NCBI GenBank assembly: GCA_040954595.2
Contig: CM082593.2
Location: forward strand, 10,239,200 to 10,303,199
Origin: Balanoglossus misakiensis
Taxonomy: Eukaryota > Animalia > Hemichordata
Length of the DNA: 64,000 nt
Direction of reading: 5' to 3'
Made by a program: the position numbers and the translations under genes. Each line of letters starts with the position of its first letter. Position 1 is the stretch's first letter. The notes under the pieces are model-generated. The model had not been told where the DNA came from. It ran no database searches and saw only the letters and a program-made list of their open reading frames with translations. Of this stretch, positions 17,771 to 64,000 are shown one piece after another.

Positions 17771-19830
17771 CATTTCCAAAACTTGGTATGCACAGCAGAT
17801 ACAGCTTTTAAATTTAGAGGACCGGAACACCTAATGAAATACATGTATTAACCTTAACACAATAATTATGTATATAAGCTATTTAAAGTTAACCAATAAA
17901 GCGTAGAAGTCTGCTTGTTGTTGGACACTGATCAGTTTGGTATCAAATTTTGTTGGCACATTTTGCATCACCTCTGGCGTACTTTACCATTTCTAGGCAT
18001 CCACAGCAGATACAGCCTTCACTTTCTGTTGGAACCATGCTAACCACTTTGGCCACTCCAATGCTGCTTGTAGCTCTAATTGTCTTCTTAATGGCAGCCA
18101 TATTGGATTTTCTAATAACTTTTAAAAGTTGACATTTTCATAAACTACAGGGCCAATCAAATTGTAGTTTACTGTAGGGTTGAAAGTTTGACAAAAATAT
18201 CATTAGTGGTCATGTGACTTTGGGTGCCTTATTAGATTTTTTAAAAATCTCATTAAAAAATTACAAAAAATCTTTTTCTAATCAAGTTTTCAAGTGAATT
18301 GTGATTGGTGTAACCTTATCAGAGCTAAATTGGATTTTCTGAACCCCGATTAAAAACTAAAATTCCCTATTTCTAGCCTACTCATTGAAAGCACACAATT
18401 TCCTTATATGGATACGAGTCACCATATGATTAGAATACGTTACATATTTTGGCAACTTTCACATGTTCTTTGATCCATACTGTGCAGTTAAAAGTTTGAC
18501 AATAATATCGTTAGCAGCCATGTGACTTTGAATGCCTTATTGGAATTTTGAAAAAACTCATAAAAAATTCAAACAGACGTTTTCTAATCAAGTTTTCAAG
18601 TGAAATGTGATTGGTGTTACCTTATTGGAGCCAAATTGGATTTCTCTGAACACTGATTAAAAACTAAGATTTCCTATTTCTAGCCTACTCATTGAAAACA
18701 AACAAATTAATTTTTGCCAGCAATTTGTTGGCAACTCTCGCATGTCCTTTGACCCAGTAATTCCAGAACTTAATTTTATGTGGATATGGCTCTTGTTAAA
18801 AAGCATAACAGTCTTGATTGTGGTCACATGAGTTTTATTGCTGCCAGGACTTAACCCAAATATTTTGATAATTTTGGCAATGACCCTTGATCTACTTGGA
18901 TATGTCTCTTGTTAAAAGCACAACAGTCATGATTTGTTCACACAAGTACTACTGCTGCCAGGGCATAACCCAAATATTTTGATAATTTTGGCATTGACCC
19001 TTGATCTACTTGGGTATGTCTCTTTTTAAAAAGCACAACAGTCATGATTTTGTTCACATGAGTTTTATTGCTGCCAGGACATAACCCAAATATTTTGATA
19101 ATTTTGGCAATGACCCTTGATCTACATTTCCAAAACTTGGTATGCACAGCATATACAGCTGTTAAATTTAGAGGACCGGAACACCTAATGAAGTACATGT
19201 ATTAACCTTAACACAATAATTATGTATATAAGCTATTTAAAGTTAACCAATAAAGCGTAGAAGTCTGCTTTTTGTTGGACACTGATCAGTTTGGTATCAA
19301 ATTTTAGCTTACTTTACCATTTCTAGGCATCCACAACAGATACAGCCTTTGCTTTCTGTTGGAACCATGCTAACCGCTTTGGCCACTCCAATGCTACTTT
19401 TAGTTTTAATTGTCTTCTTCATGGCGGCCATATTGGCTTTTCTAATAAGCTTTAAAAGTTGAAATTTTCATAATCTACAGGGCCAATCAAGTTCTAATTT
19501 ACTGTGCGATTGAAAGTTTGACAAAAATATCATTAGTGGTCATGTGACTTTTGTTGCCTTATGGATTTTTTAAAAATCTCATTAAAAAACTTCAAAAATC
19601 TTTTTCTAATCTAGTTTTCAAGTGAATTGTGATTGGCTAAACCTTATTGGAGTCAAATTGGATTTTCTGAACAACGATTTAAAACTAAGATTTCCTATTT
19701 CTGGCCTACTCATTAATTATTCGTGGATATGCCTCTTGTTGAAAAGCACAATGGTGATGATTTTTTTCACACGAATAGTACTGCTGCCAGGACATAACCC
19801 AAATTTTTTGATAACATTGGCATTGAACTT
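17420..19830. repeat. ~1354-bp tandem duplication containing 2-3 satellite A monomers plus element-derived flank
   Basis: Near-identical ORF-track entries at 17584 and 18938 (offset 1354). CATTTCCAAAACTTGGTATGCACAGCA occurs at ~17771 and ~19125. A degenerate monomer lies at ~19720-19830. Confidence 0.85.
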
Positions 19831-32300: not shown

Positions 32301-35300
32301 ATGGGTATTAAATGCATATGGGGATTTCAAGTTGATTACAAATCCCTGGGTTAATACGCGTCCAAAAGCACTGTAATTTGACATTGCTAATGCGATGTTG
32401 ACATTGAATGTAATTCTCCGCATTAGGGCAAATGGCAAAGCAAGCTTAATGATGCAATGGAGTAGACCGTGATGCAAGCTATGCATTTTGACATAGGTAT
32501 TTAATGCATGTGCATGGGTATTAAATGTTGAATGTAAATTCTCAGGTTAATACATCTCCAAAAGCACTGTAATTTAAAATTGCTAATGTAAGGGTGACAT
32601 TGAATCTGATTCTTTGCATTAGGGGAAATGGCGTAGCAAGCCTAATGATCCATCTGAGTAGATGGTGATGCAAGCTAAGCATTTTGACATAGGTACTAAA
32701 TGTATATACATGGGTATTTAAAGTTGTCTGTAAATCCCCAGGTTAATACATGGCCATAAGCATTATAATTTGACATTGCTAATGAAATGGTGACACTGAA
32801 TCTGATTCTTTGCATCAGGGTAAATGGCGATGCAAGCTTGATGATGCATCCCGGTAGATAGTGATGCAAACACTTCACTGTGACATGGGTATTAAATGCA
32901 TATGGGGATTAAAAGTTGACTGAAAATCCCTGGGTTAATACAAGTCCAAAAGCACTGAAATTTGACATAGCTAATACAATGGTGACATTGAATGTGATTC
33001 TTTGCATTAGGGGAAATGGCGTAGCAAGCCTAATGATGCATCAGTGTAGATGGTGATCCAAGCTATGCTTTTTGACATAGGTATTTAATGCATGTGCATG
33101 GGTATTTAATGTTGACTGTAAATCCCTGGGTTAATACAAATCCAAAAGCACTGTAATTTGACATTGCTAATACAACGGTGTCATTTAATCTGATTCTTTG
33201 CATCAGGGCAAATTGCGAAGCAAGCTTAATGATGCATCGGAGTATATGGTGATGCAAGCTATGCACTTTGACATACGTATTTAATGCATATGCATTGGTA
33301 TTTAATGTTGACTGTAAATCCCCAGGTTAATACGTGGCCAAAAGCACTGTAATTTGACATTGCTAATGCTACCGTGACACTAAATCTGATTCTTTGCATT
33401 AGGGTAAATTGTGAAGCAAGCTTGATGATGCATCAGGATAGATGGTGTTTTAAGCCCCTCACATCGACATTGGAATATAACGCATATGGGGATTTAAAGT
33501 TAATTGTAAATACCCAGGTTAATACATGTCCAAAAGCACTGTAATTTAAAATTGCTAATGCAATGGTGACATTGAATGTGATTCTTTGCATTAGGGGAAC
33601 TGGCGTAGCAATCCTAATAGTGCATCAGAGTAGATGGTGATGCAAGCTTTGCACTTTGACATAGGTATTTAATGCATATGCATGTGTATTTAATGTTGAC
33701 TATAAATCCTCAGGTGAATACATGGCCATAAACACTATAATTTGACATTGCTAATGAAATGGTGACACTGAATCTGATTCTTTGCATCAGGGCATATTGT
33801 GAAGCATGCTTGATGATGCATTAGGGTCAATAGTGATGGAAACACTGCACTATGACATGGGTATTTAATGCATACGCATTGATATTTACAGTTGACTCTA
33901 AATCCCGAGGTTTATACATGGCTAAAAGCGCTGTAATTTAAAATTACTAATGCAAAGGTTACATTGAATATGGGTAAATGGTGAAGCAAGCTTGAAGATG
34001 CATCAGGGTAGCTGGTGTTTCAAGCCCTTCACATTGACATTGGAATATAATGCATATGGGGATTTAAAGTTGATTGTAAATCCCTAGGTTAATACATGGC
34101 CAAAAGCAATTTTATTTGACATTGCTAATTGAACGATGACATTGAATCCGATTCTTTGCATCAGGGTAAATGGCGATGCAAGCTTGATGATGCATCACGG
34201 TAGATAGTGATGCAAACACTTTACTTTGACATGGGTATTAAATGCATATGGGGATTTCAAGTTGATTACAAATCCCTGGGTTAATACGCGTCCAAAAGCA
34301 CTGTAATTTGACATTGCTAATGCGATGTTGACATTGAATGTAATTCTCCGCATTAGGGCAAATGGCAAAGCAAGCCTAATGATGCAATGGAGTAGACCGT
34401 GATGCAAGCTATGCATTTTGACATAGGTATTTAATGCATGTGCATGGGTATTAAATGTTGAATGTAAATTCTCAGGTTAATACATCTCCAAAAGCACTGT
34501 AATTTAAAATTGCTAATGTAAGGGTGACATTGAATCTGATTCTTTGCATTAGGGGAAATGGCGTAGCAAGCCTAATGATCCATCTGAGTAGATGGTGATG
34601 CAAGCTAAGCATTTTGACATAGGTACTAAATGTATATACATGGGTATTTAAAGTTGTCTGTAAATCCCCAGGTTAATACATGGCCATAAGCATTATAATT
34701 TGACATTGCTAATGAAATGGTGACACTGAATCTGATTCTTTGCATCAGGGCATATTGTGAAGCATGCTTGATGATGTATTAGGGTCAATAGTGATGGAAA
34801 CACTGCACTATGACATGGGTATTTAATGCATACGCATTGATATTTACAGTTGACTCTAAATCCCGAGGTTAATACATGGCTAAAAGCGCTGTAATTTAAA
34901 ATTACTAATGCAAAGGTTACATTGAATATGGGTAAATGGTGAAGCAAGCTTGAAGATGCATCAGGGTAGCTGGTGTTTCAAGCCCTTCACATTGACATTG
35001 GAATATAATGCATATGGGGATTTAAAATTGATTGTAAATCCCTAGGTTAATACATGGCCAAAAGCACTGTAATTTAAAATTGCTAGTGCAATGGTGACAT
35101 TGAATGTGATTCTTTGCATCAGGGCATATTGTGAAGCATGCTTGATGATGCATTAGGGTCAATAGTGATGGAAACACTGCACTATGACATGGGTATTTAA
35201 TGCATACGCATTGATATTTACAGTTGACTCTTAATCCCGAGGTTAATACATGGCTAAAAGCACTGTAATTTAAAATTACTAATGCAAAGGTTACATTGAA

Positions 35301-38300
35301 TATGGGTAAATGGTGAAGCAAGCTTGAAGATGCATCAGGGTAGATGGTGTTTCAAGCCCTTCACATTGACATTGGAATATAATGCATATGGGGATTTAAA
35401 ATTGATTGTAAATCCCTAGGTTAATACGTGGCCAAAAGCAATTTTATTTGACATTGCTAATGCAACGATGACATTGAATCCGATTCTTTGTATCAGGGTA
35501 AATGGCGATGCAAGCTTGATGATGCATCACGGTAGATAGTGATGCAAACACTTCACTTTGACATGGGCATTAAATGCATATGGGGATTTCAAGTTGATTA
35601 CAAATCCCTGGGTTAATACGCGTCCAAAAGCACTGTAATTTGACATTGCTAATGCGATGTTGACATTGAATGTAATTCTCCGCATTAGGGCAAATGGCAA
35701 AGCAAGCTTAATGATGCAATGGAGTAGACGGTGATGCAAGCTATGCATTTTGACATAGGTATTTAATGCATGTGCATGGGTATTTAATGTTGAATGTAAA
35801 TTCCCAGGTTAATACATCTCCAAAAGCACTGTAATTTAAAATTGCTAATGTAAGGGTGACATTGAATCTGATTCTTTGCATTATGGGAAATGGCGTAGCA
35901 AGCCTAATGATGCATCTGAGTAGATGGTGATGCAAGCTAAGCATTTTGATATAGGTACTAAATGTATATACATGGGTATTTAAAGTTGTCTGTAAATCCC
36001 CAGGTTAATACTTGGCAAAAAGCAATTTTATTGGACATTGCTAATGAAATGGTGACACTGAATCTGATTCTTTGCATCAGGGTAAATGGCGATGCAAGCT
36101 TGATGATGCATCCCGGTAGATAGTGATGCAAACACTTCACTGTGACATGGGTATTAAATGCATATGGGGATTAAAAGTTGACTGAAAATCCCTGGGTTAA
36201 TACAAGTCCAAAAGCACTGAAATTTGACATAGCTAATACAATGGTGACATTGAATGTGATTCTTTGCATTAGGGGAAATGGCGTAGCAAGCCTAATGATG
36301 CATCAGTGTAGATGGTGATCCAAGCTATGCTTTTTGACATAGGTATTTAATGCATGTGCATGGGTATTTAATGTTGACTGTAAATCCCTGGGTTAATACA
36401 AATCCAAAAGCACTGTAATTTGACATTGCTAATACAACGGTGTCATTTAATCTGATTCTTTGCATCAGGGCAAATTGCGAAGCAAGCTTAATGATGCATC
36501 GGAGTATATGGTGATGCAAGCTATGCACTTTGACAAACGTATTTAATGCATATGCATTGGTATTTAATGTTGACTGTAAATCCCCAGGTTAATACGTGGC
36601 CAAAAGCACTGTAATTTGACATTGCTAATGCTACCGTGACACTAAATCTGATTCTTTGCATTAGGGTAAATTGTGAAGCAAGCTTGATGATGCATCAGGA
36701 TAGATGGTGTTTTAAGCCCCTCACATCGACATTGGAATATAACGCATATGGGGATTTAAAGTTAATTGTAAATACCCAGGTTAATACATGGCCAAAAGCA
36801 CTGTAATTTAAAATTGCTAATGCAATGGTGACATTGAATGTGATTCTTTGCATTAGGGGAACTGGCGTAGCAATCCTAATAGTGCATCAGAGTAGATGGT
36901 GATGCAAGCTCTGCACTTTGACATAGGTATTTAATGCATATGCATGTGTATTTAATGTTGACTATAAATCCTCAGGTGAATACATGGCCATAAACACTAT
37001 AATTTGACATTGCTAATGAAATGGTGACACTGAATCTGATTCTTTGCATCAGGGCATATTGTGAAGCATGCTTGATGATGCATTAGGGTCAATAGTGATG
37101 GAAACACTGCACTATGACATGGGTATTTAATGCATACGCATTGATATTTACAGTTGACTCTAAATCCCGAGGTTTATACATGGCTAAAAGCGCTGTAATT
37201 TAAAATTACTAATGCAAAGGTTACATTGAATATGGGTAAATGGTGAAGCAAGCTTGAAGATGCATCAGGGTAGCTGGTGTTTCAAGCCCTTCACATTGAC
37301 ATTGGAATATAATGCATATGGGGATTTAAAGTTGATTGTAAATCCCTAGGTTAATACATGGCCAAAAGCAATTTTATTTGACATTGCTAATTGAACGATG
37401 ACATTGAATCCGATTCTTTGCATCAGGGTAAATGGCGATGCAAGCTTGATGATGCATCACGGTAGATAGTGATGCAAACACTTTACTTTGACATGGGTAT
37501 TAAATGCATATGGGGATTTCAAGTTGATTACAAATCCCTGGGTTAATACGCGTCCAAAAGCACTGTAATTTGACATTGCTAATGCGATGTTGACATTGAA
37601 TGTAATTCTCCGCATTAGGGCAAATGGCAAAGCAAGCCTAATGATGCAATGGAGTAGACCGTGATGCAAGCTATGCATTTTGACATAGGTATTTAATGCA
37701 TGTGCATGGGTATTAAATGTTGAATGTAAATTCTCAGGTTAATACATCTCCAAAAGCACTGTAATTTAAAATTGCTAATGTAAGGGTGACATTGAATCTG
37801 ATTCTTTGCATTAGGGGAAATGGCGTAGCAAGCCTAATGATCCATCTGAGTAGATGGTGATGCAAGCTAAGCATTTTGACATAGGTACTAAATGTATATA
37901 CATGGGTATTTAAAGTTGTCTGTAAATCCCCAGGTTAATACATGGCCATAAGCATTATAATTTGACATTGCTAATGAAATGGTGACACTGAATCTGATTC
38001 TTTGCATCAGGGCATATTGTGAAGCATGCTTGATGATGTATTAGGGTCAATAGTGATGGAAACACTGCACTATGACATGGGTATTTAATGCATACGCATT
38101 GATATTTACAGTTGACTCTAAATCCCGAGGTTAATACATGGCTAAAAGCGCTGTAATTTAAAATTACTAATGCAAAGGTTACATTGAATATGGGTAAATG
38201 GTGAAGCAAGCTTGAAGATGCATCAGGGTAGCTGGTGTTTCAAGCCCTTCACATTGACATTGGAATATAATGCATATGGGGATTTAAAATTGATTGTAAA

Positions 38301-41300
38301 TCCCTAGGTTAATACATGGCCAAAAGCACTGTAATTTAAAATTGCTAGTGCAATGGTGACATTGAATGTGATTCTTTGCATCAGGGCATATTGTGAAGCA
38401 TGCTTGATGATGCATTAGGGTCAATAGTGATGGAAACACTGCACTATGACATGGGTATTTAATGCATACGCATTGATATTTACAGTTGACTCTTAATCCC
38501 GAGGTTAATACATGGCTAAAAGCACTGTAATTTAAAATTACTAATGCAAAGGTTACATTGAATATGGGTAAATGGTGAAGCAAGCTTGAAGATGCATCAG
38601 GGTAGATGGTGTTTCAAGCCCTTCACATTGACATTGGAATATAATGCATATGGGGATTTAAAATTGATTGTAAATCCCTAGGTTAATACGTGGCCAAAAG
38701 CAATTTTATTTGACATTGCTAATGCAACGATGACATTGAATCCGATTCTTTGTATCAGGGTAAATGGCGATGCAAGCTTGATGATGCATCACGGTAGATA
38801 GTGATGCAAACACTTCACTTTGACATGGGCATTAAATGCATATGGGGATTTCAAGTTGATTACAAATCCCTGGGTTAATACGCGTCCAAAAGCACTGTAA
38901 TTTGACATTGCTAATGCGATGTTGACATTGAATGTAATTCTCCGCATTAGGGCAAATGGCAAAGCAAGCTTAATGATGCAATGGAGTAGACGGTGATGCA
39001 AGCTATGCATTTTGACATAGGTATTTAATGCATGTGCATGGGTATTTAATGTTGAATGTAAATTCCCAGGTTAATACATCTCCAAAAGCACTGTAATTTA
39101 AAATTGCTAATGTAAGGGTGACATTGAATCTGATTCTTTGCATTATGGGAAATGGCGTAGCAAGCCTAATGATGCATCTGAGTAGATGGTGATGCAAGCT
39201 AAGCATTTTGATATAGGTACTAAATGTATATACATGGGTATTTAAAGTTGTCTGTAAATCCCCAGGTTAATACTTGGCAAAAAGCAATTTTATTGGACAT
39301 TGCTAATGAAATGGTGACACTGAATCTGATTCTTTGCATCAGGGTAAATGGCGATGCAAGCTTGATGATGCATCCCGGTAGATAGTGATGCAAACACTTC
39401 ACTGTGACATGGGTATTAAATGCATATGGGGATTAAAAGTTGACTGAAAATCCCTGGGTTAATACAAGTCCAAAAGCACTGAAATTTGACATAGCTAATA
39501 CAATGGTGACATTGAATGTGATTCTTTGCATTAGGGGAAATGGCGTAGCAAGCCTAATGATGCATCAGTGTAGATGGTGATCCAAGCTATGCTTTTTGAC
39601 ATAGGTATTTAATGCATGTGCATGGGTATTTAATGTTGACTGTAAATCCCTGGGTTAATACAAATCCAAAAGCACTGTAATTTGACATTGCTAATACAAC
39701 GGTGTCATTTAATCTGATTCTTTGCATCAGGGCAAATTGCGAAGCAAGCTTAATGATGCATCGGAGTATATGGTGATGCAAGCTATGCACTTTGACAAAC
39801 GTATTTAATGCATATGCATTGGTATTTAATGTTGACTGTAAATCCCCAGGTTAATACGTGGCCAAAAGCACTGTAATTTGACATTGCTAATGCTACCGTG
39901 ACACTAAATCTGATTCTTTGCATTAGGGTAAATTGTGAAGCAAGCTTGATGATGCATCAGGATAGATGGTGTTTTAAGCCCCTCACATTGACATTGGAAT
40001 ATAACGCATATGGGTATTTAAAGTTAATTGTAAATACCCAGGTTAATACATGGCCAAAAGCACTGTAATTTAAAATTGCTAATGCAATGGTGACATTGAA
40101 TGTGATTCTTTGCATTAGGGGAACTGGCGTAGCAATCCTTATAGTGCATCAGAGTAGATGGTGATGCAAGCTCTGCACTTTGACATAGGTATTTAATGCA
40201 TATGCATGTGTATTTAATGTTGACTATAAATCCTCAGGTGAATACATGGCCATAAACACTATAATTTGACATTGCTAATGAAATGGTGACACTGAATCTG
40301 ATTCTTTGCATCAGGGCATATTGTGAAGCATGCTTGATGATGCATTAGGGTCAATAGTGATGGAAACACTGCACTATGACATGGGTATTTAATGCATACG
40401 CATTGATATTTACAGTTGACTCTAAATCCCGAGGTTTATACATGGCTAAAAGCGCTGTAATTTAAAATTACTAATGCAAAGGTTACATTGAATATGGGTA
40501 AATGGTGAAGCAAGCTTGAAGATGCATCAGGGTAGCTGGTGTTTCAAGCCCTTCACATTGACATTGGAATATAATGCATATGGGGATTTAAAATTGATTG
40601 TAAATCCCTAGGTTAATACATGGCCAAAAGCACTGTAATTTAAAATTGCTAATGCAATGGTGACATTGAATGTGATTCTTTGCATCAGGGCATATTGTGA
40701 AGCATGCTTGATGATGCATTAGGGTCAATAGTGATGGAAACACTGCACTATGACATGGGTATTTAATGCATACGCATTGATATTTACAGTTATCTCTTAA
40801 TCCCGAGGTTAATACATGGCTAAAAGCACTGTAATTTAAAATTACTAATGCAAAGGTTACATTGAATATGGGTAAATGGTGAAGCAAGCTTGAAGATGCA
40901 TCAGGGTAGATGGTGTTTCAAGCCCTTCACATTGACATTGGAATATAATGCATATGGGGATTTAAAATTGATTGTAAATCCCTAGGTTAATACGTGGCCA
41001 AAAGCAATTTTATTTGACATTGCTAATGCAACGATGACATTGAATCCGATTCTTTGTATCAGGGTAAATGGCGATGCAAGCTTGATGATGCATCACGGTA
41101 GATAGTGATGCAAACACTTCACTTTGACATGGGCATTAAATGCATATGGGGATTTCAAGTTGTTTACAAATCCCTGGGTTAATACGCATCCAAAAGCACT
41201 GTAATTTGACATTGCTAATGCGATGTTAACATTGAATGTAATTCTCCGCATTAGGGCAAATGGCAAAGCAAGCTTAATGATGCAATGGAGTAGACGGTGA

Positions 41301-43114
41301 TGCAAGCTATGAATTTTGACATAGGTATTTAATGCATGTGCATGGGTATTTAATGTTGAATGTAAATTCCCAGGTTAATACATCTCCAAAAGCACTGTAA
41401 TTTAAAATTGCTAATGTAAGGGTGACATTGAATCTGATTCTTTGCATTATGGGAAATGGCCTAACAAGCCTAATGATCCATCTGAGTAGATGGTGATGCA
41501 AGCTAAGCATTTTGACATAGGTACTAAATGTATATACATGGGTATTTAAAGTTGTCTGTAAATCCCCAGGTTAATACATGGCCATAAGCTCTATAATTTG
41601 ACATTGCTAATGAAATGGTGACACTGAATCTGATTCTTTGCATCAGGGCATATTGTGAAGCATGCTTGATGATGTATTAGTGTCAACAGTGATGGAAACA
41701 CTGCACTATGACATGGGTATTTAATGCATATGCATTGATATTTACAGTTGACTCTAAATCCCGAGGTTAATACATGGCTAAAAGCGCTGTAATTTAAAAT
41801 TACTAATGCAAAGGTTACATTAAATATGGGTAAATGGTGAAGCAAGCTTGAAGATGCATCAGGGTAGATGGTGTTTCAAGCCCTTTACATTGACTTGGAA
41901 TATAATGCATATGGGGATTTAAAATTGATTGTAAATCCCTAGGTTAATACGTGGCCAAAAGCAATTTTATTTGACATTGCTAATGCAACGATGACATTGA
42001 ATCCGATTCTTTGCATCAGGGTAAATGGCGATGCAAGCTTGATGATGCATCATGGTAGATAGTGATGCAAACACTTCACTTTGACATGGGCATTAAATGC
42101 ATATGGGGATTTCAAGTTGATTACAAATCCCTGGATTAATACGCGTCCAAAAGCACTGTAATTTGACATTGCTAATGCGATGTTGACATTGAATGTAATT
42201 CTCCGCATTAGGGCAAATGGCAAAGCAAGCTTAATGATGCAATGGAGTAGACGGTGATGCAAGCTATGCATTTTGACATAGGTATTTAATGCATGTGCTT
42301 GGGTATTTAATGTTGAATGTAAATTCCCAGGTTAATACATCTCCAAAAGCACTGTAATTTAAAATTGCTAATGTAAGGGTGACATTGAATCTGATTCTTT
42401 GCATTATGGGAAATGGCATAGCAAGCCTAATGATCCATCTGAGTAGATGGTGATGCAAGCTAAGCATTTTGATATAGGTACTAAATGTATATACATGGGT
42501 ATTTAAAGTTGTCTGTAAATCCCCAGGTTAATTCTTGGCAAAAAGCAATTTTATTTTACATTGCTAATGAAATGGTGACACTGAATCTGATTCTTTGCAT
42601 CAGGGTAAATGGCGATGCAAGCTTGATGATGCATCCCGGTAGATAGTGATGCAAACACTTCACTTTGACATGGGTATTAAATGCATATGGGGATTAAAAG
42701 TTGACTGAAAATCCCTGGGTTAATACAAGTCCAAAAGCACTGAAATTTGACATAGCTAATACAATGGTGACATTGAATGTGATTCTTTGCATTAGGGGAA
42801 ATGGCGTAGCAAGCCTAATGATGCATCAGTGTAGATGGTGATCCAAGCTCTGCGCTTTGGCATACATATTTAATGCATGTGCATGGGTATTTAATGTTGA
42901 ATGTAAATTCCCAGGTTAATATATGCATGGGTATTTAATGTTGACTGTAAATCCCTAGGTTAATACATGGCCATAAGTACTGTAAGGGGTAGATGGTGAT
43001 GCAAGCTCTGCACTTTGACATGGGGATTAAATGCATGCTGAGGGGGATTTTAAGTTGTCTGTAAATCCCCAGGTTGATATGTGGCCAAAAGCACTGTAAT
43101 TTGACATTGCTAAT
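26341..43114. repeat. Satellite B, ~192-196-bp divergent monomers organised in 3262-bp and 1930-bp higher-order repeats
   Basis: GGTTAAT core at 26402, 26598, 26790 and 26986. Matching spurious ORFs recur at offsets 3262 (29003/32265, 33063/36325/39587, 34195/37457) and 1930 (31133/33063, 32265/34195). Confidence 0.97.
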
Positions 43115-53906: not shown

Positions 53907-54189
53907 GTTTTATCGTTTTGTTGTGCATTTGTTTGTATACTATCATAAATTGTTGCCATATAGTGGAGACCATGGTTTTGATAGGTAGAGATTCTGCAAA
54001 TTGTGAAGACGGTGCTGGGTCTGTAGGCTGGTACTGTTACTGTATGTGCGCTTGTGGTTTCCTGCTATATAATATGGGCCGTGTTGGTTTGCGTCGTGCG
54101 TTCGGCTGTGTTGACTTGTGCTGAATGCCCTGTACTGCTAGGGGTTGTCAAACTGGGGGTTGTAAATCGCGATACAGCAAGGCATATAT

Positions 54190-55998
54190 GCAGAAAGAAT
54201 ATCTAAGATAGGGAGAAAATTTGGGTTGGAAGGGACTGCTTTAAAAGATTATGTTAGAGAGGAACAAATTAGACAGAGGGATCTTAGGGCTACTGAGAGA
54301 GAGGAGCAGAGAGAAGATAATAGGCGGCGCGAGGAACATGAGAGAGAGATACTGAAAATGCAAATTCACTTACAAGAATTAAAATTGAAAGGGGAAAATA
54401 CAGAACAGCAGGTTACTGAAAATAATTTGGCAAAAGCGCGTGCTCCGAGACTACAGGGTTTACGTGAGGATGTTGATGATATGGATGCGTACCTTCAACG
54501 TTTTCAGCGCTACGCCACTGCTCAGAAGTGGGAAAAAGATGACTGGGGGTGAATCTCAGTGCATATTGTTACAAGGTAAGGATGTATCCACATACAACCA
54601 AATGCCTGCAGCGTCTGCAAATAATTATGATGAATTGAAACCAGAGTTATTGAGGGCTTACCAGTTAAGTGAGGAGAGTTTTCATGACAAGTTCCGTTCG
54701 TGTATGCCACATTATGATGAAAGTGCTCAAAAGTTTATGGACCGTATTGGTGACTATTTGGGCAGATGGGTAGAACTGGCTGGTACTCCAAAGACGTACA
54801 ATGGGCTTACAGATCTGTTACTTCGAGAGCAGTTTATTGGAGTATGTTCCAGAGACATGGCAATGTTCATTAGAGAGCGACGGCCAGAGAATGTCCAAGA
54901 GATGGTATCTACTGCCTCAAAATACTTAGATGCCCGAGGGTGGTGGAAACTGCCAAGTAATGCCAAGAATAATCCAAGGAGCCAGCCGACAGCAAATACC
55001 AAGCCTGCTGTATATCCAAATCAAGTAAATAAGTTTAATAACAAAACCAATGGTTCCCATGTTTTTAAAGGTACGTGCTTCGTATGTGGTAAAGGTGGTC
55101 ATATGGCCAAAGATTGTAGAAGTAAGCCAAAGATGCATAAGACGGCGGTATTGTTAACTGAAGAAGATAGAAACTATCCACCTAAACAAGAATGTACACA
55201 TTGGGGCAACCGTCAACAGCCCAGGGGACAAGACACTGGTTATGCATGTATGGTGGTAGCAATGGAAATAGATAAAACAGATGCAACACTGAATAAGGAG
55301 TTCGTGTTACCATGTGGTCATAAGCTCCCAGTGATGAGTGCTGCTTGTAGTGCCCATGGAGTGAAGAAGATGCCGGTAATGAAGGGATTGGTCGATGGTA
55401 AGCTGGTTAGCGTTTTGCGTGATAGTGGGTGTAGTAGCGTGGTAGTTCGAAGAAGTCTGGTGTCAAGTAATCAGCTGACTGGTGAGTACAGGACGTGTGT
55501 TCTGATAGATGGGACTATTAGAAGAGTACCTGTAGCCTCTATAAAAGTTGATACCCCTTACTTTGTTGGTGAAGTTACTGCACTGTGCATGATGAACCCT
55601 GTGTATGATTTAATACTGGGCAACATTGATGGTGTATCTGACCCTTCGAATCCTGATACTACATGGCAGGAACCATTGCCGACATGTAGACTGTGTACAA
55701 CTGTTGGACAGGTACCAGGTTTAGCAAATGCTGTGGAGACCAGAGCCCAGAAGATAGCCAACCAAAAACCAATCAGAGAGCTTAAAGTACCTAAAGCTGT
55801 TGGTGAAGTGGTGATGCCAGGGAAGCTTCAACAAGCTCAAGAAGAAGACTCCACTCTTGACAAACTACGTGAGAAGGCAATTTTTGGTGACGAGAAAGTG
55901 ACTAGGAATGGAGGTAGGTTGAAGTTCATCATGAAAGATGGGATCCTGTACAGAGAGTTCAATTCGCCAATGGTCCAATTTGGTGAAAAGCTGTTACA
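54190..55998 (+). pseudogene. gag-pol: Gypsy gag-protease (frameshifted near 54550, interrupted at 55998)
   Basis: N-terminal coiled coil, DMDAYLQRFQRYA, capsid/SCAN-like LLREQF, zinc knuckle CFVCGKGGHMAKDC and aspartic protease LRDSGCS. The last ~34 aa of ORF 54440-56101 is read-through into the inserted transposon. Confidence 0.88.
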
Positions 55999-56040
55999 CA
56001 CTGCGGGAAATACTAGAGCTATGTTGGGCAGTATTCCGCG
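55999..56040 (+). repeat. Left bipartite TIR
   Basis: CACTGCGG + 18 nt + TGGGCAGTATT (56025-56035) + CCGCG. Confidence 0.85.
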
Positions 56041-56082
56041 AAGCGCGAGCTCCCATGTTCACCATAGCAACGCATTGCCAAG

Positions 56083-56733
56083 ATGGCGGCGCCCGTGTTG
56101 ATCGATGCCGAGAAAGTTATAAAACGCAAATTGCGAGAGGCAAAATCTGTGCTTAAACGTAAAAAATGCGTGTCGGACAATCTGTATATACACCCACTCT
56201 TTGATGAACTTGAGGATGTGACAACAAGGGCCATATTTCGAAACGACAAGCTGTCAAAGGACAAGATTCCTTGGCGTGACGTCGCCGTATTTCCCATGTT
56301 TCAGCGTGATATGACCTACTGGCAGAAGACCTTCTACGCTCGGCTGTCAACATCCCCGTCGTTAAGGTCACCATGGCAAAGCAGCTTTACACAACAAATG
56401 CCGAGGGAAGTATTTGATGTTTTTCATCAGTTTGCTACTCGGACCGGTTTTGGTATCGACGAGAAGACCTCCAGGGCTATCATAACCTTGACCTTCACAA
56501 GTTCCTCGAAGCTATTGTATGTGATACGGAAAGGTTATTGCTACGAGGGCGCTATCGGTCAGCATACAGAGAATATCCTAGAGAAGAAAGTCCGTGGAAA
56601 GAGGGTAGCTGTTATATGCACACCTGAGAAGCCCTGTGTTGTGAAATATTTTATCAACAGGGAGACTGTTGCTGTTAGATTCAGCTTTGGTGCCTGGAAC
56701 AAACATGGAATTCCATTACATCCAGAGAACTGA
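56083..56733 (+). CDS. 216-aa basic protein of unknown family, second gene of the transposon
   Basis: Uninterrupted ORF with ATG in CAAGATGGCGGC context, 84 bp inside the left end. Basic N-terminus (KRKLREAKSVLKRKK), AT-rich 3' flank and AATAAA at 56862-56867. Confidence 0.7.
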   Translation: MAAPVLIDAEKVIKRKLREAKSVLKRKKCVSDNLYIHPLFDELEDVTTRAIFRNDKLSKDKIPWRDVAVFPMFQRDMTYWQKTFYARLSTSPSLRSPWQSSFTQQMPREVFDVFHQFATRTGFGIDEKTSRAIITLTFTSSSKLLYVIRKGYCYEGAIGQHTENILEKKVRGKRVAVICTPEKPCVVKYFINRETVAVRFSFGAWNKHGIPLHPEN

Positions 56734-57585
56734 ACCCTATTGATTTTTCACACTGATTCAACCCATCTGACGAACATTTTTTTCCTGATCTGTGGCACAT
56801 GTTGTTCAGTGTAGATGTATCAGTCTGTCAAGACAGTCCTCTCACAATTGACATATATTCAAATAAAAAAAGGAAAATTAGAAGACTCAAAAATTCATCA
56901 CTTGTCTTTATTTATCTACATTCAATACAAATGAACAGATAACGTTTACAAAATTTCCTAAACTGTAAAATTCTTTTTTTCCATCATTATTGTAACATAG
57001 ATTTTTCATTAGTTTCAGAAAAAAATGTATGTTACCTACAATCAACATTGATAAGTCAATCAAAACTGCTCATCTAACAGTTAACCAGGATTTCTGGTCT
57101 AAATTTAATTAATATTTACAATTAATTCCATGACAAAATTTATAAATATCAAGAATTTGATGAGACTTAATTCTTTATTTTTTCACAAATTCATTAAAAT
57201 TTCGTGCAGGTGCAGAATAAACAACTCCTCAAGAAAAATGTAAAACTTTTCTATCAAGCTTATGTATGTCATACATTTTAATTTTGCAAAGCACTGCAAT
57301 CACTATACGATTAAGGGTTTATTCACAATACTTAATAGTGGTAAGATAAGTTTCAATTTCCCTGTCCCCATACATGCACACAAATACAAAATCCCATAAG
57401 AAACATATCATCTCCAGTTCAAAAAGTGTGAATTCATGTGATTTGTGATCTCCATTTTTATTAAATGCAGCTCTCAACTACAGATGAGTCTTTATAATTC
57501 TGTAATGTAATTAATACCATAGTTATCCTTTAATTCTAAAGTAGCACACAGTGACACAATCCACTGTTTCAAATTCAATCATTGT

Positions 57586-59826
57586 TCACAGCATAAGTTT
57601 CTTGAGTTTATTTGATATTTTACCAGTGACAGCTGCTTTTTTTATGTCATCCATAATTGGGTCAACACATATTTCACAGGCAGTCATTGTTTCATTTTTC
57701 AAATTGCCACACATACAGTAGCCTGCATTCTCATAATATCGACTGGGAATGTATTTTTCTTTTTCTTTAAGCTCAAATTGACCTACATTTGCCCTTCTAT
57801 AGTTGTCAGCTTTTGGACTTTTGTTCCTCAGCCAAAAAAGCATCACATATTCGTGTCGAAATATGAGGGCCCACCTATTTTGAGGTGTAGAATTTTCACT
57901 GAATTCTAGCAGGCGTAGATGCTTTGCCTCTCTGCCTTCCATTGTGTTTAGGCCTAATCCCAGACTGAATTGCTTATAGATACTAGTGGTGTGTTTTGGG
58001 ACTACAAAACCAATGTGCCACACAGTATTATTGACATTCAGAAACAGGGAATGTAGATTAAAGTACCACCGACACTTATGCCTAAGTACAAGCAAATCTC
58101 CCTCATTTATGTTGAATCGTGAGAATAACAAAGTGATATCTCTAAGCAAGATACCAGTATATGTGTAGAGAGCTAATTGAGCCCGACGCTTTGGACTGTC
58201 TGTATCACTTCTCAATGCTAATACCAATCCCATGAAATGCCAAGCAAGTTTGCGAGACTCCTCACCAGTGAAGCGATAAACCACATTAATGTTGGCATTT
58301 GACTTGACACTATTTTCATTGAAGTATTTTACAATCTTATTATACAACTTTCCAGCTTTTACTTGATATTTTAGGGCAGACAGGAATTTGTACAGATATG
58401 ACTCGTTAGGTAGATTCTCAATTTTAACTCCATTTTCACGACCCTTTTCCGAAGTGTGGGCAACTGCGTCAATCAGTAATCGTTGGAAGTAGTATTGCCA
58501 TGCATTGTTCTTTAAATGCAATGGCTCAGCCTTGGCACAATCAATAAATCTACCCAACGGTGGTACAAATTCCTGTCTTGACCTCAGACTGGCTATAAAT
58601 TGTGTGATTTTGGGTCGCACTGTTTTGGGCTTTCCAGTTTTAATTTTCTTAGTTGACTTCAACTTTTCAACAGCTTCTGCATCTTTAATTCTTTTCTGAT
58701 ATTTCCATTCATCCCACTTCTGACCTGGGCCAATTTCTGCTCCAATACAATCAATATCATTTTTGGAAACGTTAGCAAATGAGCTGAAATACTTTGCTGC
58801 ATTGCTTAGTTCTCCAGACACACTGGCCAATCCCTTCTGATCAAAGGGTAAAAGTGACACCTGAAAAGTTACATCAAGACTGCCAACTTTATATTTACGT
58901 TTCTCAATACACTCAAGGTCTTTTGACAATGCAATTGCAAATTCAATCATTATGGGGTCATCCTCTTTTATGTTTGCCCCTAATAGGAGAAAATTGTGGT
59001 CTGGGCTAGCAACACGGTGGGTCACATTCAAGAAACTAACTAGCCATGCAGTGGCCTGTCCATGTTTGCCAAACGGAGCCCCGTCAGCACCTATACTGAT
59101 TTGAAATGAGCCCTCCTGTTTACCGAACCAGTTAAGAATATCAGGCTGTGTTTCCCCCATATTTAAATATAAACTGGCAATCTTAATAAGCAACTCCTCA
59201 GGGTTTCTTTTTAAGCCGACTTGTTTGCCTTCAGATGATATAATTGGCTCAAGATTTCCAATGTCAAGGTTACTTACATACTGTACAACTTTTGTGTATG
59301 GGAGCAGTCTTGGTATTCTACAGCCAGAATGAATTTCTAATGCTTTCCTAGGATGTTTCAAGTTGGAGAACATCTGAAGTTCACTCTGCCTCAGACAGTT
59401 ATATTTTCGTTTGGATAGTACTCCGCCCTCATACATAGTTCTGACACTCCTCACCAAATTGTTCTCACTTTTCTCAAATTTACTGATGTATTTATCAAAT
59501 ACTGATGGCATTACTTTTTTACTGATTTGGGGAGAGGTTCTGAAGTATGTTTTCATTTGGTCAGGAGTGGCAGAATTAACAAGAGTATACCACAAACCAT
59601 CAAGTGCTGCTTTTGGTGGATGTAGTACATTCGGTTTATTTATACCTTTGGCTGGGCTTACATCTGTAGTTGCTACATGAATATTTATGGCTGCTGATAA
59701 GGTTTCACACCTACGTTCATACTGTTGACGTCGCGACAGCTTCAAAGATTCACTATTATCTGCACATACTTCAGTGTTCTTGTGGACCCATTTAGAGCGT
59801 TTCACATTAACATCATCAACAGGAAT
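57586..59826 (-). CDS. Transposase main coding exon (DDE catalytic core, C-terminal CxC-x11-CxxC)
   Basis: Open for 746 codons from a phase-0 acceptor (TTTCAG|ATT at 59827/59826). Motifs GADG (D at 59083-59085), PFDQK (D at 58840-58842), AEPLH, RFTGEESRKL and GLGLNTMEGREAKH (E at 57928-57930) parallel RAG1 CDG, GYDEK, DALH, MNGNFARKL and GAWASEGNES. Confidence 0.85.
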   Translation of the reverse strand: MPVDDVNVKRSKWVHKNTEVCADNSESLKLSRRQQYERRCETLSAAINIHVATTDVSPAKGINKPNVLHPPKAALDGLWYTLVNSATPDQMKTYFRTSPQISKKVMPSVFDKYISKFEKSENNLVRSVRTMYEGGVLSKRKYNCLRQSELQMFSNLKHPRKALEIHSGCRIPRLLPYTKVVQYVSNLDIGNLEPIISSEGKQVGLKRNPEELLIKIASLYLNMGETQPDILNWFGKQEGSFQISIGADGAPFGKHGQATAWLVSFLNVTHRVASPDHNFLLLGANIKEDDPIMIEFAIALSKDLECIEKRKYKVGSLDVTFQVSLLPFDQKGLASVSGELSNAAKYFSSFANVSKNDIDCIGAEIGPGQKWDEWKYQKRIKDAEAVEKLKSTKKIKTGKPKTVRPKITQFIASLRSRQEFVPPLGRFIDCAKAEPLHLKNNAWQYYFQRLLIDAVAHTSEKGRENGVKIENLPNESYLYKFLSALKYQVKAGKLYNKIVKYFNENSVKSNANINVVYRFTGEESRKLAWHFMGLVLALRSDTDSPKRRAQLALYTYTGILLRDITLLFSRFNINEGDLLVLRHKCRWYFNLHSLFLNVNNTVWHIGFVVPKHTTSIYKQFSLGLGLNTMEGREAKHLRLLEFSENSTPQNRWALIFRHEYVMLFWLRNKSPKADNYRRANVGQFELKEKEKYIPSRYYENAGYCMCGNLKNETMTACEICVDPIMDDIKKAAVTGKISNKLKKLML

Positions 59827-60179
59827 CTGAAAGATTAAGTGTGTGATAAATATATACTAATTAGAATATAATCATTATATATAAAATAAAATCTTCTTAC
59901 AAGTTAATCATTAATTTAAATGTCCTTGATAAGAAATACACACGTGTAGCCTGTATTTTTCTGACAACTTCTGCAATAAAAATCCTAAAAAATATATATA
60001 GTTTGTTGGAAAACCTAGATGTTTTGCATCAAAGCTGAACCCATTTTGTTATCATTGTTTACACAGGATCATGTGACATGAAGTTCAAAAAGCGAATTTG
60101 GGCTAAAATTTGAAGAGGATTTATACAAATCTGAGATTTTTAAAATTATGACTAAGTCTATTTATCTGATCTAGCTTAC

Positions 60180-60623
60180 CTTTCTCTTATTATTCTTTGT
60201 AGCTAAGATCTCACAAATCTTACTGTTCTTCTTCTCTAGTCTAGCTAGCTGGGTTGAGGATCTTTTTACTAGTCTCCTAGCTGCACTCAACTTATTCAAC
60301 TTATCCTGAATTATGCTTTCTTCCTCATCTCTCTTTCTCTTTCTCTGTCTACACCACTCTCCTAAGTTAAACCTGTGTTTAGTCTGTCCTCTCTTTGTTC
60401 TAACTACCAATAGGTTGTTGGCCACGCTCCCAGACAAAGATCTAGTCTTCAATTTCTCCTGATATGGTTGTTGCAAACACTTCTCTTCAGCTACCTGTCT
60501 CGCTATCTTTTGGTCCTTTGCCCACTGGCCTATGTTGAAGTAACTTTTCCCTTTTCTATTCGGCATAACAATAGACAAACTTTTAAGAAGTGCGCTACTC
60601 CTGTTGAATAGTTTGCCCCACAT
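60180..60623 (-). CDS. Transposase first coding exon (148 aa, basic, coiled-coil)
   Basis: GCCATGTGG start at 60623. Phase-0 donor AAG|GTAAGC at 60180/60179 joins in frame across a 353-bp GT-AG intron (59827-60179) to give ~894 aa. An upstream acceptor TTTTCAG at 60640 means the true start could lie in an earlier exon. Confidence 0.72.
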
Positions 60624-61429
60624 GGCTCTAAATCTATACCTGAAAAGGGTGAACAAGAGAAATATCTTGACAATAATTATCTATCCGAGGGAAGCAAAAA
60701 CAAAACACCTGCTCATTATACTTCCTCCAGAAATTGAGGTCAAAGGTGACATAGAAAGAATGTGGGTAACCTTACCATAACAATCTCGCCCGTTCATTTT
60801 TTTCTTATTTCGTTTTCACCCTCGAATTTCCAGCGAATTATATCAAGAATATATTTTAGCACAAACTATTGGTTTCTGATTTTTCAGTTACGGTCTTATT
60901 TTCTGTCAATTCTATGAACAATATCACCATGTCGCTGAAAATTCGAAGCGCCGCCATTACAATCAATGTAACCCGTGCTGCTGCCAAGGAACACACAGGG
61001 TCGTATATTTTCGCTTGGTATGATTTCGTCATATTGCTTGTAGCAGCATTTTAAACATGGAATCCTATGTTTACGTATAAAAGACTAAATTCGTATGGTT
61101 TTCAAATTGAAAAAAACAATTCTGTGAAGCTGAATCGTTGTAATTTTTAGTGTTTGTTTATGGTTGCTTAGGACGGCTTCTGCTATAGCAACGGCCAGGG
61201 ACTGTCAGCGGGTGATCAAAATGTTCAAGTTATTTGGCTGATACACATAAATAACACAGCAGAATCGCAACTTTATTTCATATTGTCTCTGACATCTTGC
61301 TAATTTTACTAAACAAAACTTGGAATAAAGCAATATTACTCACCGAATTATGCTGTGCATCGACAGCTGTGTTCGATCGCGAACGCCATTACTGTGTCTA
61401 ATTAAATATTCATGAGCTTCATAGGCTGC

Positions 61430-61472
61430 CACGGAAATACTGCCCATAGGTGGCGTCGTTCAAGCTGTAGTG
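61430..61472 (-). repeat. Right bipartite TIR
   Basis: Minus strand reads CACTACAG + 18 nt + TGGGCAGTATT (61446-61436) + TCCGTG. Confidence 0.85.
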
Positions 61473-62742
61473 ACAGGTGGTGGTTCCCAGAGTGTATCGT
61501 AACCAGGTGATGAGACTAGCCCATGAATCAGTGCTGGGTGGTCACCACGGAACTCACAAGACCACAGACAAGATCCTCAGCAACTTCGTTTGGCCTGGGC
61601 TAACATCAGATGTTTCCCGTTACTGTCAGTCCTGTGATTCATGTCAACGGACACAACCAAAGGGACGGGTGACCAAGGTACCACTTGGAAGTATGCCACT
61701 AATAGATATCCCTTTCCTACGTATTGCAGTAGACCTGGTTGGCCCTATTCATCCATGCACTGAACGCAAGAATAGGTACATACTTACTGTTGTTGATTAT
61801 GCAACACGCTATCCGGAGGCTGTTGCATTGACTAACATTGATACCAAGACTGTTGCAGAGGCGCTCCTGGACATCTACTCAAGAGTGGGGTGTCCACGTG
61901 AAATTCTGACAGATCAAGGAACTCAATTTACATCAGATGTGATGCGTGAGGTCAGCCGGCTTTTGTCTATAAAGCAGAAGACTACCACCCCATACCACCC
62001 AGCATTCAATGGTCTAGTGGAACGGTTCAATGGTACATTGAAACTCATGCTCAGGAAGATGTGTGAGGAACGTCCAACATATTGGGATCGTTATCTGAAT
62101 GCTTTACTATTTGCCTACAGAGAAACGCCTCAATCGAGCACAGGATTCTCTCCGTTTGAATTACTTTATGGGAGGAGTGTGCGTGGTCCAATGGCTATCT
62201 TGAAAGAACTATGGACTGGAGAGATCAGTGAACCAGAAACCAAAACGACTTATCAATACATCCTTGATCTTCAAAAGAAATTAAAGAAGGCATGCGATTT
62301 AGCAAGACAAGAACTGAAGATATCACAAGGCAAATACAAGTCCTACTACAATAGAAAGGCCAAATGGAGGAAGTTCAACAAAGGTGACGAGGTGTTATTG
62401 CTACTACCTACTGACCATAATAAACTACTTATGCACTGGAAGGGTCCTTTTCCAGTGGTGGAGAAAGCGAGCAATATGGATTACAAGATTGACTTTGGTC
62501 ATAGGGTGAAAACATTCCATGCCAACCTGTTGAAGAGGTACTATCGAAGAACTGATCAGCTAGATGAAGTATCAGCTGGACTTCTTGAGATTGTGTGTGT
62601 ATCTGTGATAGATGAGCAGAGTTATGAATCTTCAGAAGTACAAGAGAACACAGGGGTTAAAGTAAACGATGACTTACTGCGGGTTCCTGCATTCAAGCAG
62701 AAAGAATTTGCTGCAGATGTGAATGTATGTGACAACTTGTAA
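61473..62742 (+). pseudogene. pol: Gypsy integrase region of pol
   Basis: HHCC motif (AHES..GHHG..CQSCDSC), catalytic VDLVGP / TDQG / VERFNG and GPY/F-like WKGPF. The TAA at 62740-62742 is premature, because the same frame continues into the RT region. Confidence 0.9.
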
Positions 62743-63482
62743 GACATACAGGAGCAAGTGGTGAGGAGGTTGCTGATCAATTACAAAGATATGTTAACTG
62801 ATATTCGTGGTAACACCAACCTGGGTTTCCATGACATCAAGTTGATGGATCCAACACCAGTATGCAGTAGGCCATACCCCATCCCTCATGCACTCCGTGA
62901 AGCAGTGAAAGATGAAGTCAAAACGATGATTAAGATGGGAGTAGCTGAACCTTCAGAGAGTCCATATGCTGTTCCATTGGTAATGGTGAAGAAATCTGAT
63001 GGGTCCAATCGTTGTTGTGTTGACATGAGAAAGCTCAATCGCATAACAGTGTTTGATGCAGAGCCTACACCAGACCTGAGTGAGCTTTTTGCTTTTTGCT
63101 AAGTTATCCAAGGATCACTATTTCACTAAAGTAGATCTCAGCAAAGAATATTGGCAAGTCCCGTTGACTGATAATTCTAAACAATTGACGGCATTTATCA
63201 CGCATGATGGGCTATACCAATTTATCAAAATGCCTTTCGGACTTGTAAATAGTGCTGCGACTTTTAGCAGAATTATGAGAAGATTGTTAAGAGATATGAA
63301 GAACGTAGACAACTATATCGATCACATACTGATCCACACTGCATCATGGGAAGAACATATCAAGACAATTACAGATTTGATGAGCAGACTACGAAAGGCA
63401 AAGTTAACAGCGAGACCAACTAAGTGTTATGTGGGTTATGAGCAGATCGATTTCCTGGGTCATGTGGTTGGTCATGGTGAAC
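62743..63482 (+). pseudogene. pol: Gypsy reverse transcriptase region, frameshifted and truncated
   Basis: RPYPIP, SPYAVPLVMVKKSDGSNRCCVDMRKLN, KVDLSKEYWQVP, MPFGLVNS and FLGHVVG. YIDD reads YIDH; a 7-bp duplication (CTTTTTG x2) at ~63085 causes a frameshift. Confidence 0.9.
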
Positions 63483-64000
63483 TAGTCCTGTTTCAAAATG
63501 ACCTACATTACAGGTCCTATGCACACGTATTACATGTTCTGATTGGTTTATCCACTTCTCTAAGGTCCACTTGCGGCTCGCTGATTGGAGGGACCTTATG
63601 TGTTAGGTCTTATTACTATGTATTATTCACCAGACCTTGTAGGTTAGGTCTTATTACAATGCATTATTCACTTTACAGCTCCCTGATTGGTTAATGTGTA
63701 GGTCTGGTCCTCCAGTGTTCACTGCCTCATTATGCAGGACCTTGTAGGTTAGGTCTTATTAATATGTATTTATTCACCATACAGCTCCCTGATTGGTTAA
63801 CGTGTCAGTCTGGTCCCCCCCCAGTGTTCACTGCCTCATTGTGAAATGTCCCATGTGCTTCCTGGCTAGCGTTGTGGTAACATATTATTCGGGGTGTCCG
63901 CAGATCGTTCATTGATTTTCTGAGAAATAGCCTAACTGATACTATCTCCAACATAAACCGCACCCTGGAAAGATTAAATGATCTTTTAGGTGGACTTTGA
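63483..64000. mobile_element. Unrelated repeat-containing sequence that truncates RT (probable further insertion)
   Basis: RT similarity stops after GHGEL. The new sequence starts TAGTCCTG and has ~106-bp tandem copies (~63632-63842) of GACCTTGTAGGTTAGGTCTTATTA...CAGTGTTCACTGCCTCATT. Confidence 0.5.

Follow-up and report, generated by a model that had tools for sequence, protein, structure and literature searches.

The 64,000-nucleotide stretch of Balanoglossus misakiensis DNA analysed here (contig CM082593.2 of assembly GCA_040954595.2, positions 10,239,200 to 10,303,199; hereafter the window) carries a transposon that is bounded by target-site duplications (TSDs) of the triplet ACA and interrupts a Gypsy-type retrotransposon. 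A transposase gene occupies its minus strand, and its plus strand encodes a small basic protein, which we call the partner. As described in the first-pass annotation of this locus, the 216-amino-acid (aa) plus-strand reading frame and the minus-strand gene lie tail to tail; their stop codons are 852 bp apart. Coordinates are given in Table 1.

Table 1. Features of the transposon and of the retrotransposon that hosts it
Feature	Position	Strand	Details
Whole element	55999-61472		5474 bp; bounded by ACA duplication
Left TSD, ACA	55996..55998	n/a	sequence
Right TSD, ACA	61473..61475	n/a	sequence
Partner-side end	55999..56035	+	CACTGCGGG, 16-nt spacer, conserved block (T)TGGGCAGTATT
Transposase-side end	61436..61472	-	CACTACAGC, spacer, block TGGGCAGTATT
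Basic partner gene, 216 aa; predicted helical hairpin and alpha/beta domain	56083..56733	+	open reading frame (ORF), homologues, model
Main transposase exon, 746 aa; predicted RAG1/Transib fold	57586..59826	-	open frame, homologues, model
Predicted GT-AG intron, 353 bp	59827..60179	-	donor AAG/GTAAG, acceptor TTTCAG, phase 0
Predicted first coding exon, 148 aa	60180..60623	-	predicted start ATG 60623
Predicted catalytic Asp 1 (D248 of exon)	59083..59085	-	110/110 aligned proteins
Predicted catalytic Asp 2 (D329)	58840..58842	-	110/110
Predicted catalytic Glu (E633)	57928..57930	-	110/110
C-terminal CxC...CxxC motif (C704, C706, C717, C720)	57667..57717	-	104-106/110 rows, remainder mostly gaps
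Host Gypsy-type retrotransposon, gag/protease side (outside element)	54389..55998	+	SCAN, zf-CCHC
Host retrotransposon, integrase then reverse transcriptase, further broken (outside element)	61473..63694	+	Integrase_H2C2, rve, RVT_1

The boundaries, the ACA duplication and the continuous pol frame reported earlier proved exact: both flanks are pieces of a single Gypsy-type gag-pol gene and share one reading frame across the insertion. In plus-strand letters the element opens with CACTGCGGG (55999) and closes with GCTGTAGTG (61472), the complement of the closing end being CACTACAGC. The CACT...AGTG termini and the bipartite character of the ends, also noted at first pass, were found again, since the two ends agree at positions 1-4 and then over the 11-bp block TGGGCAGTATT at positions 27-37 of each. 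A 4-bp terminal match combined with an in-register 11-bp run occurred in none of 200,000 random position pairs drawn from the element, in a test devised only once the end pattern was known. The block is present at just two places in the window, which are the two ends of the element. If one mismatch is allowed, chance alone predicts about 2.3 matches in the window, so that the evidence resides in the register and not in the count. An inner inverted pair, GGAAATACT ... AGTATTCC, was also seen in the partner-side end (56000-56040), where the distal motif occurs twice in opposite orientations.

For the minus-strand gene a spliced frame of about 894 aa had been proposed. Its 746-codon open exon and a phase-0 intron were recovered, giving 148 + 746 = 894 aa from ATG 60623, with intron and start remaining predictions. 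The predicted first coding exon contains 38 Lys or Arg among 148 residues and three scattered Cys without a CxxC, and its similarity to the N-termini of the family is weak (best phmmer E 0.007 among 329 proteins). The transposase had 243 homologues among 7995 scored candidates, and relatives at E ≤ 0.001 amounted to 1448 representatives. The closest named one belongs to another hemichordate, Ptychodera flava (74% identity). Cnidarian relatives (Nematostella, Exaiptasia, Actinia, Actinostola, Porites, Acropora, Dendronephthya) and unnamed marine records are 34-45% identical to the window protein, and further ones occur in the ribbon worm Lineus and the lancelet Branchiostoma. All named homologues are labelled 'uncharacterized' or 'hypothetical'. 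A PDB sequence search with the window protein and with a 110-sequence profile gave no meaningful match to any solved structure, a Pfam scan of the window protein and 82 homologues (24 at E ≤ 0.05, 58 at E ≤ 0.01) returned no transposase family, and no relatives were found in the viral contigs searched. A distant subfamily from lancelet and unnamed sources (P0208, P0243, P0245; 26-27% identity) has an additional C-terminal SAP domain, with weak C2H2 matches in two of the three proteins.

An AlphaFold2 model of the main exon (pLDDT 89.9, pTM 0.86) was ranked by Foldseek closest to RAG1 (E 1e-12), followed by HzTransib (6e-8), BbRAGL (4e-6) and the P element (8e-3). The VIA fold comparison, run against 48,161 chains, gave the same first place to RAG1, with Z 21.9 and a root-mean-square deviation (rmsd) of 6.4 over 515 aligned residues, or alternatively Z 21.8 and rmsd 3.8 over 463. 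BbRAGL (Z 20.0, rmsd 4.2, 460 aligned), HzTransib (Z 14.3, rmsd 7.4, 396 aligned), the P element (Z 10.8, rmsd 5.4, 359 aligned) and Hermes (Z 5.0) came after it. Sequence identity within the structural alignments to RAG1 and Transib was about 10-13%. The transposase is predicted to have the RAG1/Transib DDE fold, and the RAG1-like DDE enzyme of the first-pass annotation finds support in this model and in the invariant D-D-E residues. No EnSpm or Chapaev chain was among the hits and, to our knowledge, no structure of either has been solved; the ranking therefore shows a fold and not the nearest relative, and RAG1 is not proved to be the closest kin.

Outside the catalytic residues, an LH motif was nearly universal in the 110-protein alignment (L436 in 109 rows, H437 in all), and the C-terminal CxC...CxxC motif, a new one, is likely a zinc site. 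At the positions of the H(3-4)H or H(4)H motif, H612 is present in 150 of 171 proteins and H607 in 59, the window protein having F607. The C(2)C motif was missing altogether: none of the 171 family proteins has a CxxC within the expected stretch, which we placed on the assumption of position equivalence to RAG1, and no Cys between D329 and E633 is conserved at ≥80% in the alignment of 110 proteins. Loss of this zinc motif, which defines the CMCT clade, is the strongest departure of the family, and it had been missed at first pass.

The 216-aa partner gene is a trait of the family. Used as a single query of the protein database, the window partner gave 85 candidates, none of them a homologue at E ≤ 0.001, whereas a profile found 56 protein homologues, of which 52 carry the precomputed Pfam label PF26709. 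This label did not surface in our own Pfam scan of 22 partner family members, and literature searches retrieved no paper on PF26709. Named members come from Stylophora and Pocillopora, complete homologues measure about 200-240 aa, and the isoelectric point lies between 8.7 and 10.3 in all 22 aligned sequences. Over the 56 rows of the alignment F111 is the sole invariant residue and R87 is nearly so; invariant acidic or metal-binding residues are absent. Conserved Cys or His are also lacking in the family. The model (pLDDT 82) begins with three long helices (3-87) and continues as a domain of mixed alpha/beta structure, and is not a kelch propeller. Fold searches with it gave no convincing match (best Foldseek E 0.019 in the PDB and 1.2e-3 in BFVD; best Z 7.7 in the wide VIA search, for the N-terminal hairpin only). 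A second VIA look at the alpha/beta domain yielded Z ≤ 4.6; the domain was modelled within the whole partner, hence we make no claim for a new fold. A lead from the ESM Atlas towards Argonaute N/L1/PAZ (score 0.93, low recognition, 148 shared features) was dropped when a relative gave no usable hit.

Of 242 metagenome loci with a transposase gene, the best 80 served to count linkage of the two genes. The window partner alone matches 32 of the 80 at E < 1e-3, always downstream on the opposite strand, and a partner profile, built in part from these 32 loci, matches 35, all convergent with the transposase. Where at least 1.5 kb of downstream room is available, the profile finds the partner in 32 of 34 loci; after clustering at 90% transposase identity, the tail-to-tail arrangement is seen in 17 of the 19 clusters with room. 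In most relatives the partner starts about 76-106 bp inside one element end, and elements that keep it in the same place and orientation have transposases with a median identity of 38%. Pairwise identities of the two proteins correlate over 18 clusters with transposase identities of 30-83% (Spearman rho 0.70, reached in 0 of 2000 permutations). The transposase tree and a quick version of the partner tree have most clades in common, the main differences being the placement of L028 and of the L066/L075 pair. The ratio of non-synonymous to synonymous rates (dN/dS) of the partner was 0.26, 0.33 and 0.29 in three unsaturated pairs. Longer internal inverted repeats were observed in L020/L021/L042/L054, L039 and L019, overlapping the partner gene in its 5' part and also a site that lies upstream of the transposase.

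Sixteen ends of relatives on the partner side and nine on the transposase side yielded a consensus CACGCYGGG(C) terminus and, near positions 22-37, a second block that is weaker. The sample with the window insertion also contains a diverged relative, about 82% alike, which has CACTACGGG, then 16 unrelated bases, then the conserved block in the exact register of the window's end. With its unrelated spacer and unchanged register, it independently supports a bipartite end of fixed spacing. The same-sample diverged relative has a loose end before position 56024, and its partner gene is represented at both ends. The short loose ends of run X2 were discounted, several of them carrying one common sequence that resembles a library linker.

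Among 12 loci with both ends, a 3-bp duplication was present in five (binomial p about 2e-6), a 2-bp match in one and no match in six, and 4-6 bp were duplicated in none. A further case, L081, is an element of 8542 bp with both genes and a perfect 15-bp terminal inverted repeat, which has duplicated ATA inside a 294-bp satellite. Its empty site occurs 13 times in neighbouring satellite units, and not once if 2 or 4 bp are removed instead; this comparison settles the TSD length at 3 bp. Seven TSDs were observed in total (ACA, TTA, TAG, ATT, AAT, AGC and ATA). Homologues were seen to combine linked CAC ends, 3-bp TSDs and a convergent partner; this outcome, like the predicted DDE fold and the absence of a Pfam transposase match, failed to refute the first-pass interpretation. 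The L081 contig (1-14043) is part of a bacterial metagenome-assembled genome and was the only match in prokaryote genomes; it is probably animal host DNA in that assembly, and thus no evidence for bacterial hosts. In a coral-type family, two CAC-type left ends lie 845 bp apart (L009:668 and 1513, L013:2395 and 3240, L011:4274), which suggests a nested or extended end; the TSD call for L011 uses the inner of the two.

The family resembles RAGL (ProtoRAG) elements in its CAC termini, bipartite ends and two convergent genes, and in a host range of cnidarians, a nemertean, a hemichordate and a lancelet (PMC7204232; PMC9435367). RAG1 is also the best structural match with invariant D-D-E residues, a likeness of predicted fold and not of sequence. 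The partner, however, has about 210 aa and an alpha/beta model, whereas RAG2 is a six-bladed kelch propeller with a PHD finger; the TSD is 3 bp instead of 5 bp, the tail motif is CxC-x10-CxxC instead of Cx2Cx3GHx4C (PMC7204232), and C(2)C is lacking. Membership in RAGL is ruled out by the non-RAG2 partner, the absence of a 5-bp TSD and the other tail motif. What the first-pass annotation had singled out, a RAG-like layout combined with a 3-bp TSD and a partner that is not RAG2, stands, on the convergent arrangement, the empty-site control and the predicted partner fold.

Transib shares the fold, the CAC ends and a distal block in them. A TSD of 3 bp had been taken as a departure from it; this did not hold, since Hayabusa and Transib-6 also have 3 bp (bioRxiv 10.64898/2026.08.26.747230) and TSD length does not discriminate. 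Transib encodes a single protein (PMC4411706; PMC1131882), whereas the present family has a conserved second gene, which sets it apart from Transib; it also lacks C(2)C, and a sequence match to HzTransib was not found. With Chapaev and Chapaev3 it has CAC...GTG ends, a TSD of 3-4 bp and the LH motif in common, out of the C(2)C, LH and H(4)H motifs of Chapaev (PMC4079192). It differs by the missing C(2)C, by H(4)H in a minority only and by its second gene, and the cysteine-rich N-terminal Chapa zinc-finger domain was not seen in longer homologues or in the N-terminus of the window protein, where the 5' gene end is predicted. Chapaev3 duplicates TWA (PMC4079192), found in one of our seven TSDs, and this target preference together with C(2)C excludes it.

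The CMCT clade was defined by Kojima through C(2)C and H(3-4)H, and the C(2)C is shared by all EnSpm, Mirage, Chapaev and Transib of Repbase according to the CMCT survey (PMC12730594). The CA..TG termini and 2-5 bp TSD defined in the same source are found in our family, and EnSpm/CACTA and the wider CMCT (Mirage, Plavaka, ESTA, Lanisha) are similar in their RAG1-related DDE core and in having a second protein. The window copy itself has CACTA/CACTG ends and a 3-bp TSD, as in EnSpm/CACTA. The family differs in lacking the clade-defining C(2)C and any Pfam transposase match, and in that its second gene is a separate convergent one. In agreement with the earlier statement that the element fits no recognised family, we conclude that it represents a new lineage, with two genes, within the RAG1/CMCT radiation, possibly of superfamily rank.

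It is quite possible, although we lean the other way, that Repbase or Dfam already lists this family as EnSpm or unclassified, from Nematostella, Acropora, oyster or lancelet. Ends of the window type (CACTA/CACTG) or of the CACGC type together with a 3-bp TSD would be filed as EnSpm under Repbase working rules (PMC12730594; PMC4455052), and the family occurs in Nematostella, a genome that Repbase covers (PMC4455052). Against this stand the Pfam scan of the window protein and 82 homologues, which gave no EnSpm-type or RAG1 hit, the uninformative labels of the named homologues, and the absence from all 171 family proteins of the C(2)C common to the Repbase groups named above. The literature searches, whose scope excluded Repbase, Dfam, Repbase Reports and most subscription papers, likewise found no description. 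A broad DDE survey was seeded with known superfamilies only (bioRxiv 10.1101/2021.09.26.461848). Lanisha was considered as a possible name and set aside; the transposon-related literature accessible under it consists of the CMCT paper and moss-genome papers. The catalogue question concerns novelty and is independent of mechanism. Even if the family has a database name, its conserved partner, its RAG-like layout and the loss of its zinc motif appear to be undescribed.

The analysis establishes that the element is a mobile unit with defined bipartite ends, 3-bp duplications, an invariant D-D-E triad and two genes that are linked and co-descend. RAG and Transib enzymes cleave at CAC and leave hairpins on the donor flanks. 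By analogy with this chemistry, the transposase would bind the terminal CAC 9-mer and cut at CAC, excision would leave hairpins on the donor flanks, and the element ends would be joined to target DNA with a 3-nt stagger. By analogy with RAG2 we consider it reasonably probable that the transpososome requires the partner as a DNA-binding cofactor. More speculatively, the second block (about positions 22-37) might be read by the transposase N-terminus, by the C-terminal CxC-CxxC motif or by the partner, and the partner might stabilise end binding, or the insertion domain deprived of its C(2)C zinc ligands. It might take the place that RAG2 holds in RAGL elements, despite its unrelated fold. A precedent for such help exists, as RAG2 stimulates Transib transposition in vitro (PMC4840297).

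A regulatory or anti-silencing protein, which would bind the subterminal block or the chromatin of the element and tune expression or protect the ends, would be another explanation for the partner. We regard it as rather unlikely. The uniformly basic character of the partner and its lack of invariant acidic or metal-binding residues would suit such a role, retention and purifying selection are equally compatible with it, and MuDR, Harbinger and En/Spm are known to have a second protein with a regulatory function (PMC1131882). The 22 members scanned, however, include no Myb/SANT or other known DNA-binding family in Pfam, and the partner is a separate convergent gene with its start close to one end, a RAGL-like layout. 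In En/Spm the second protein is a spliced product of the transposase gene, an arrangement unlike this one. It is very improbable that the element picked up the ORF as a passenger, or that the ORF is open by chance, and that it contributes nothing to the element's life: the failed single-sequence search, two clusters devoid of the partner and four allele differences in the window copy, all non-synonymous, would fit it, but 56 homologues were found by profile, and place and orientation are kept across distant elements with matching trees and dN/dS near 0.3.

Several observations weigh against the cofactor reading and the picture of a maintained two-gene family. Genes of one element share a tree regardless of function, so that co-descent demonstrates retention and not a catalytic role. 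Clusters L031 and L071 have room for the partner and lack it, and the evidence for linkage covers only marine-metagenome contigs and the window's genome. The three unsaturated dN/dS pairs all include L003, three further pairs are saturated, and one near-identical pair shows five non-synonymous changes to one synonymous. Seven of the 12 both-end loci have no 3-bp match; these misses likely arise from collapsed short-read assembly, suspected because L016 and L018 have a common left flank and different right flanks. At positions 7 and 9 the transposase-side end of the window copy deviates from the GGG of the family. Finally, the allele of another sample differs from the window by 12 non-synonymous and three synonymous changes in the ORFs and by two 1-bp indels in the large exon. 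The description of the element as intact hence holds for the open frames of the window copy and not for that allele.

Contigs from one sample span both insertion junctions and differ from the window by about 0.5%. These diverged contigs and the pattern of changes indicate that the insertion is shared and drifting; judged from its sequence, the window copy drifts neutrally and retains open frames only. The depth of the X1 contig over the element and both flanks (55200-62300) was about 1500-1700, compared with 114 and 262 for two diverged relatives. The locus may be amplified as a whole block, contig depth not being copy number.

With the cofactor reading preferred, we put forward tentatively, and with more doubt than confidence, that the family is an undescribed, superfamily-level branch of the RAG1 fold in cnidarians, ribbon worms, hemichordates and lancelets. 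Its insertion domain would have lost the canonical zinc site, its CAC ends would be bipartite with a fixed spacer, and its transpososome would obligatorily consist of two subunits, the transposase and a small partner. This would be a second independent invention of RAG1 plus helper.

The host of the insertion is a long terminal repeat retrotransposon (54166-63694) with a SCAN domain and a zinc knuckle in gag and an integrase that precedes the reverse transcriptase, an order which we take to be that of Gmr1-like Gypsy elements. These elements are the source of SCAN domains. Additional stops and a frame change were seen beyond 62742. Elsewhere in the window lie two satellite arrays, one at 1-19125 with a 116-bp unit and higher-order periods, the other of 16.5 kb at 26381-42925 with a 196/388-bp unit; no ORF of at least 150 aa was found between 17000 and 54000.

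How a single-gene enzyme of the Transib type became dependent on RAG2 is a central question for the origin of V(D)J recombination, and no partner other than RAG2 was found described for the RAG1 fold in the literature examined. A separate lineage with the same predicted fold, a tail-to-tail layout and bipartite CAC ends, another partner and no C(2)C offers a natural comparison. It bears on what a helper does for the RAG1 fold and on whether the zinc site is dispensable when a helper is present. Because there are compact copies whose frames are open, a transposition assay is feasible. Our data also add to coral and invertebrate genomes a large family of unclassified elements, explain many of their 'uncharacterized' proteins and suggest a function for the unnamed protein family PF26709. 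If the proposal is true, the two-gene RAG layout would have had a second, separate origin.

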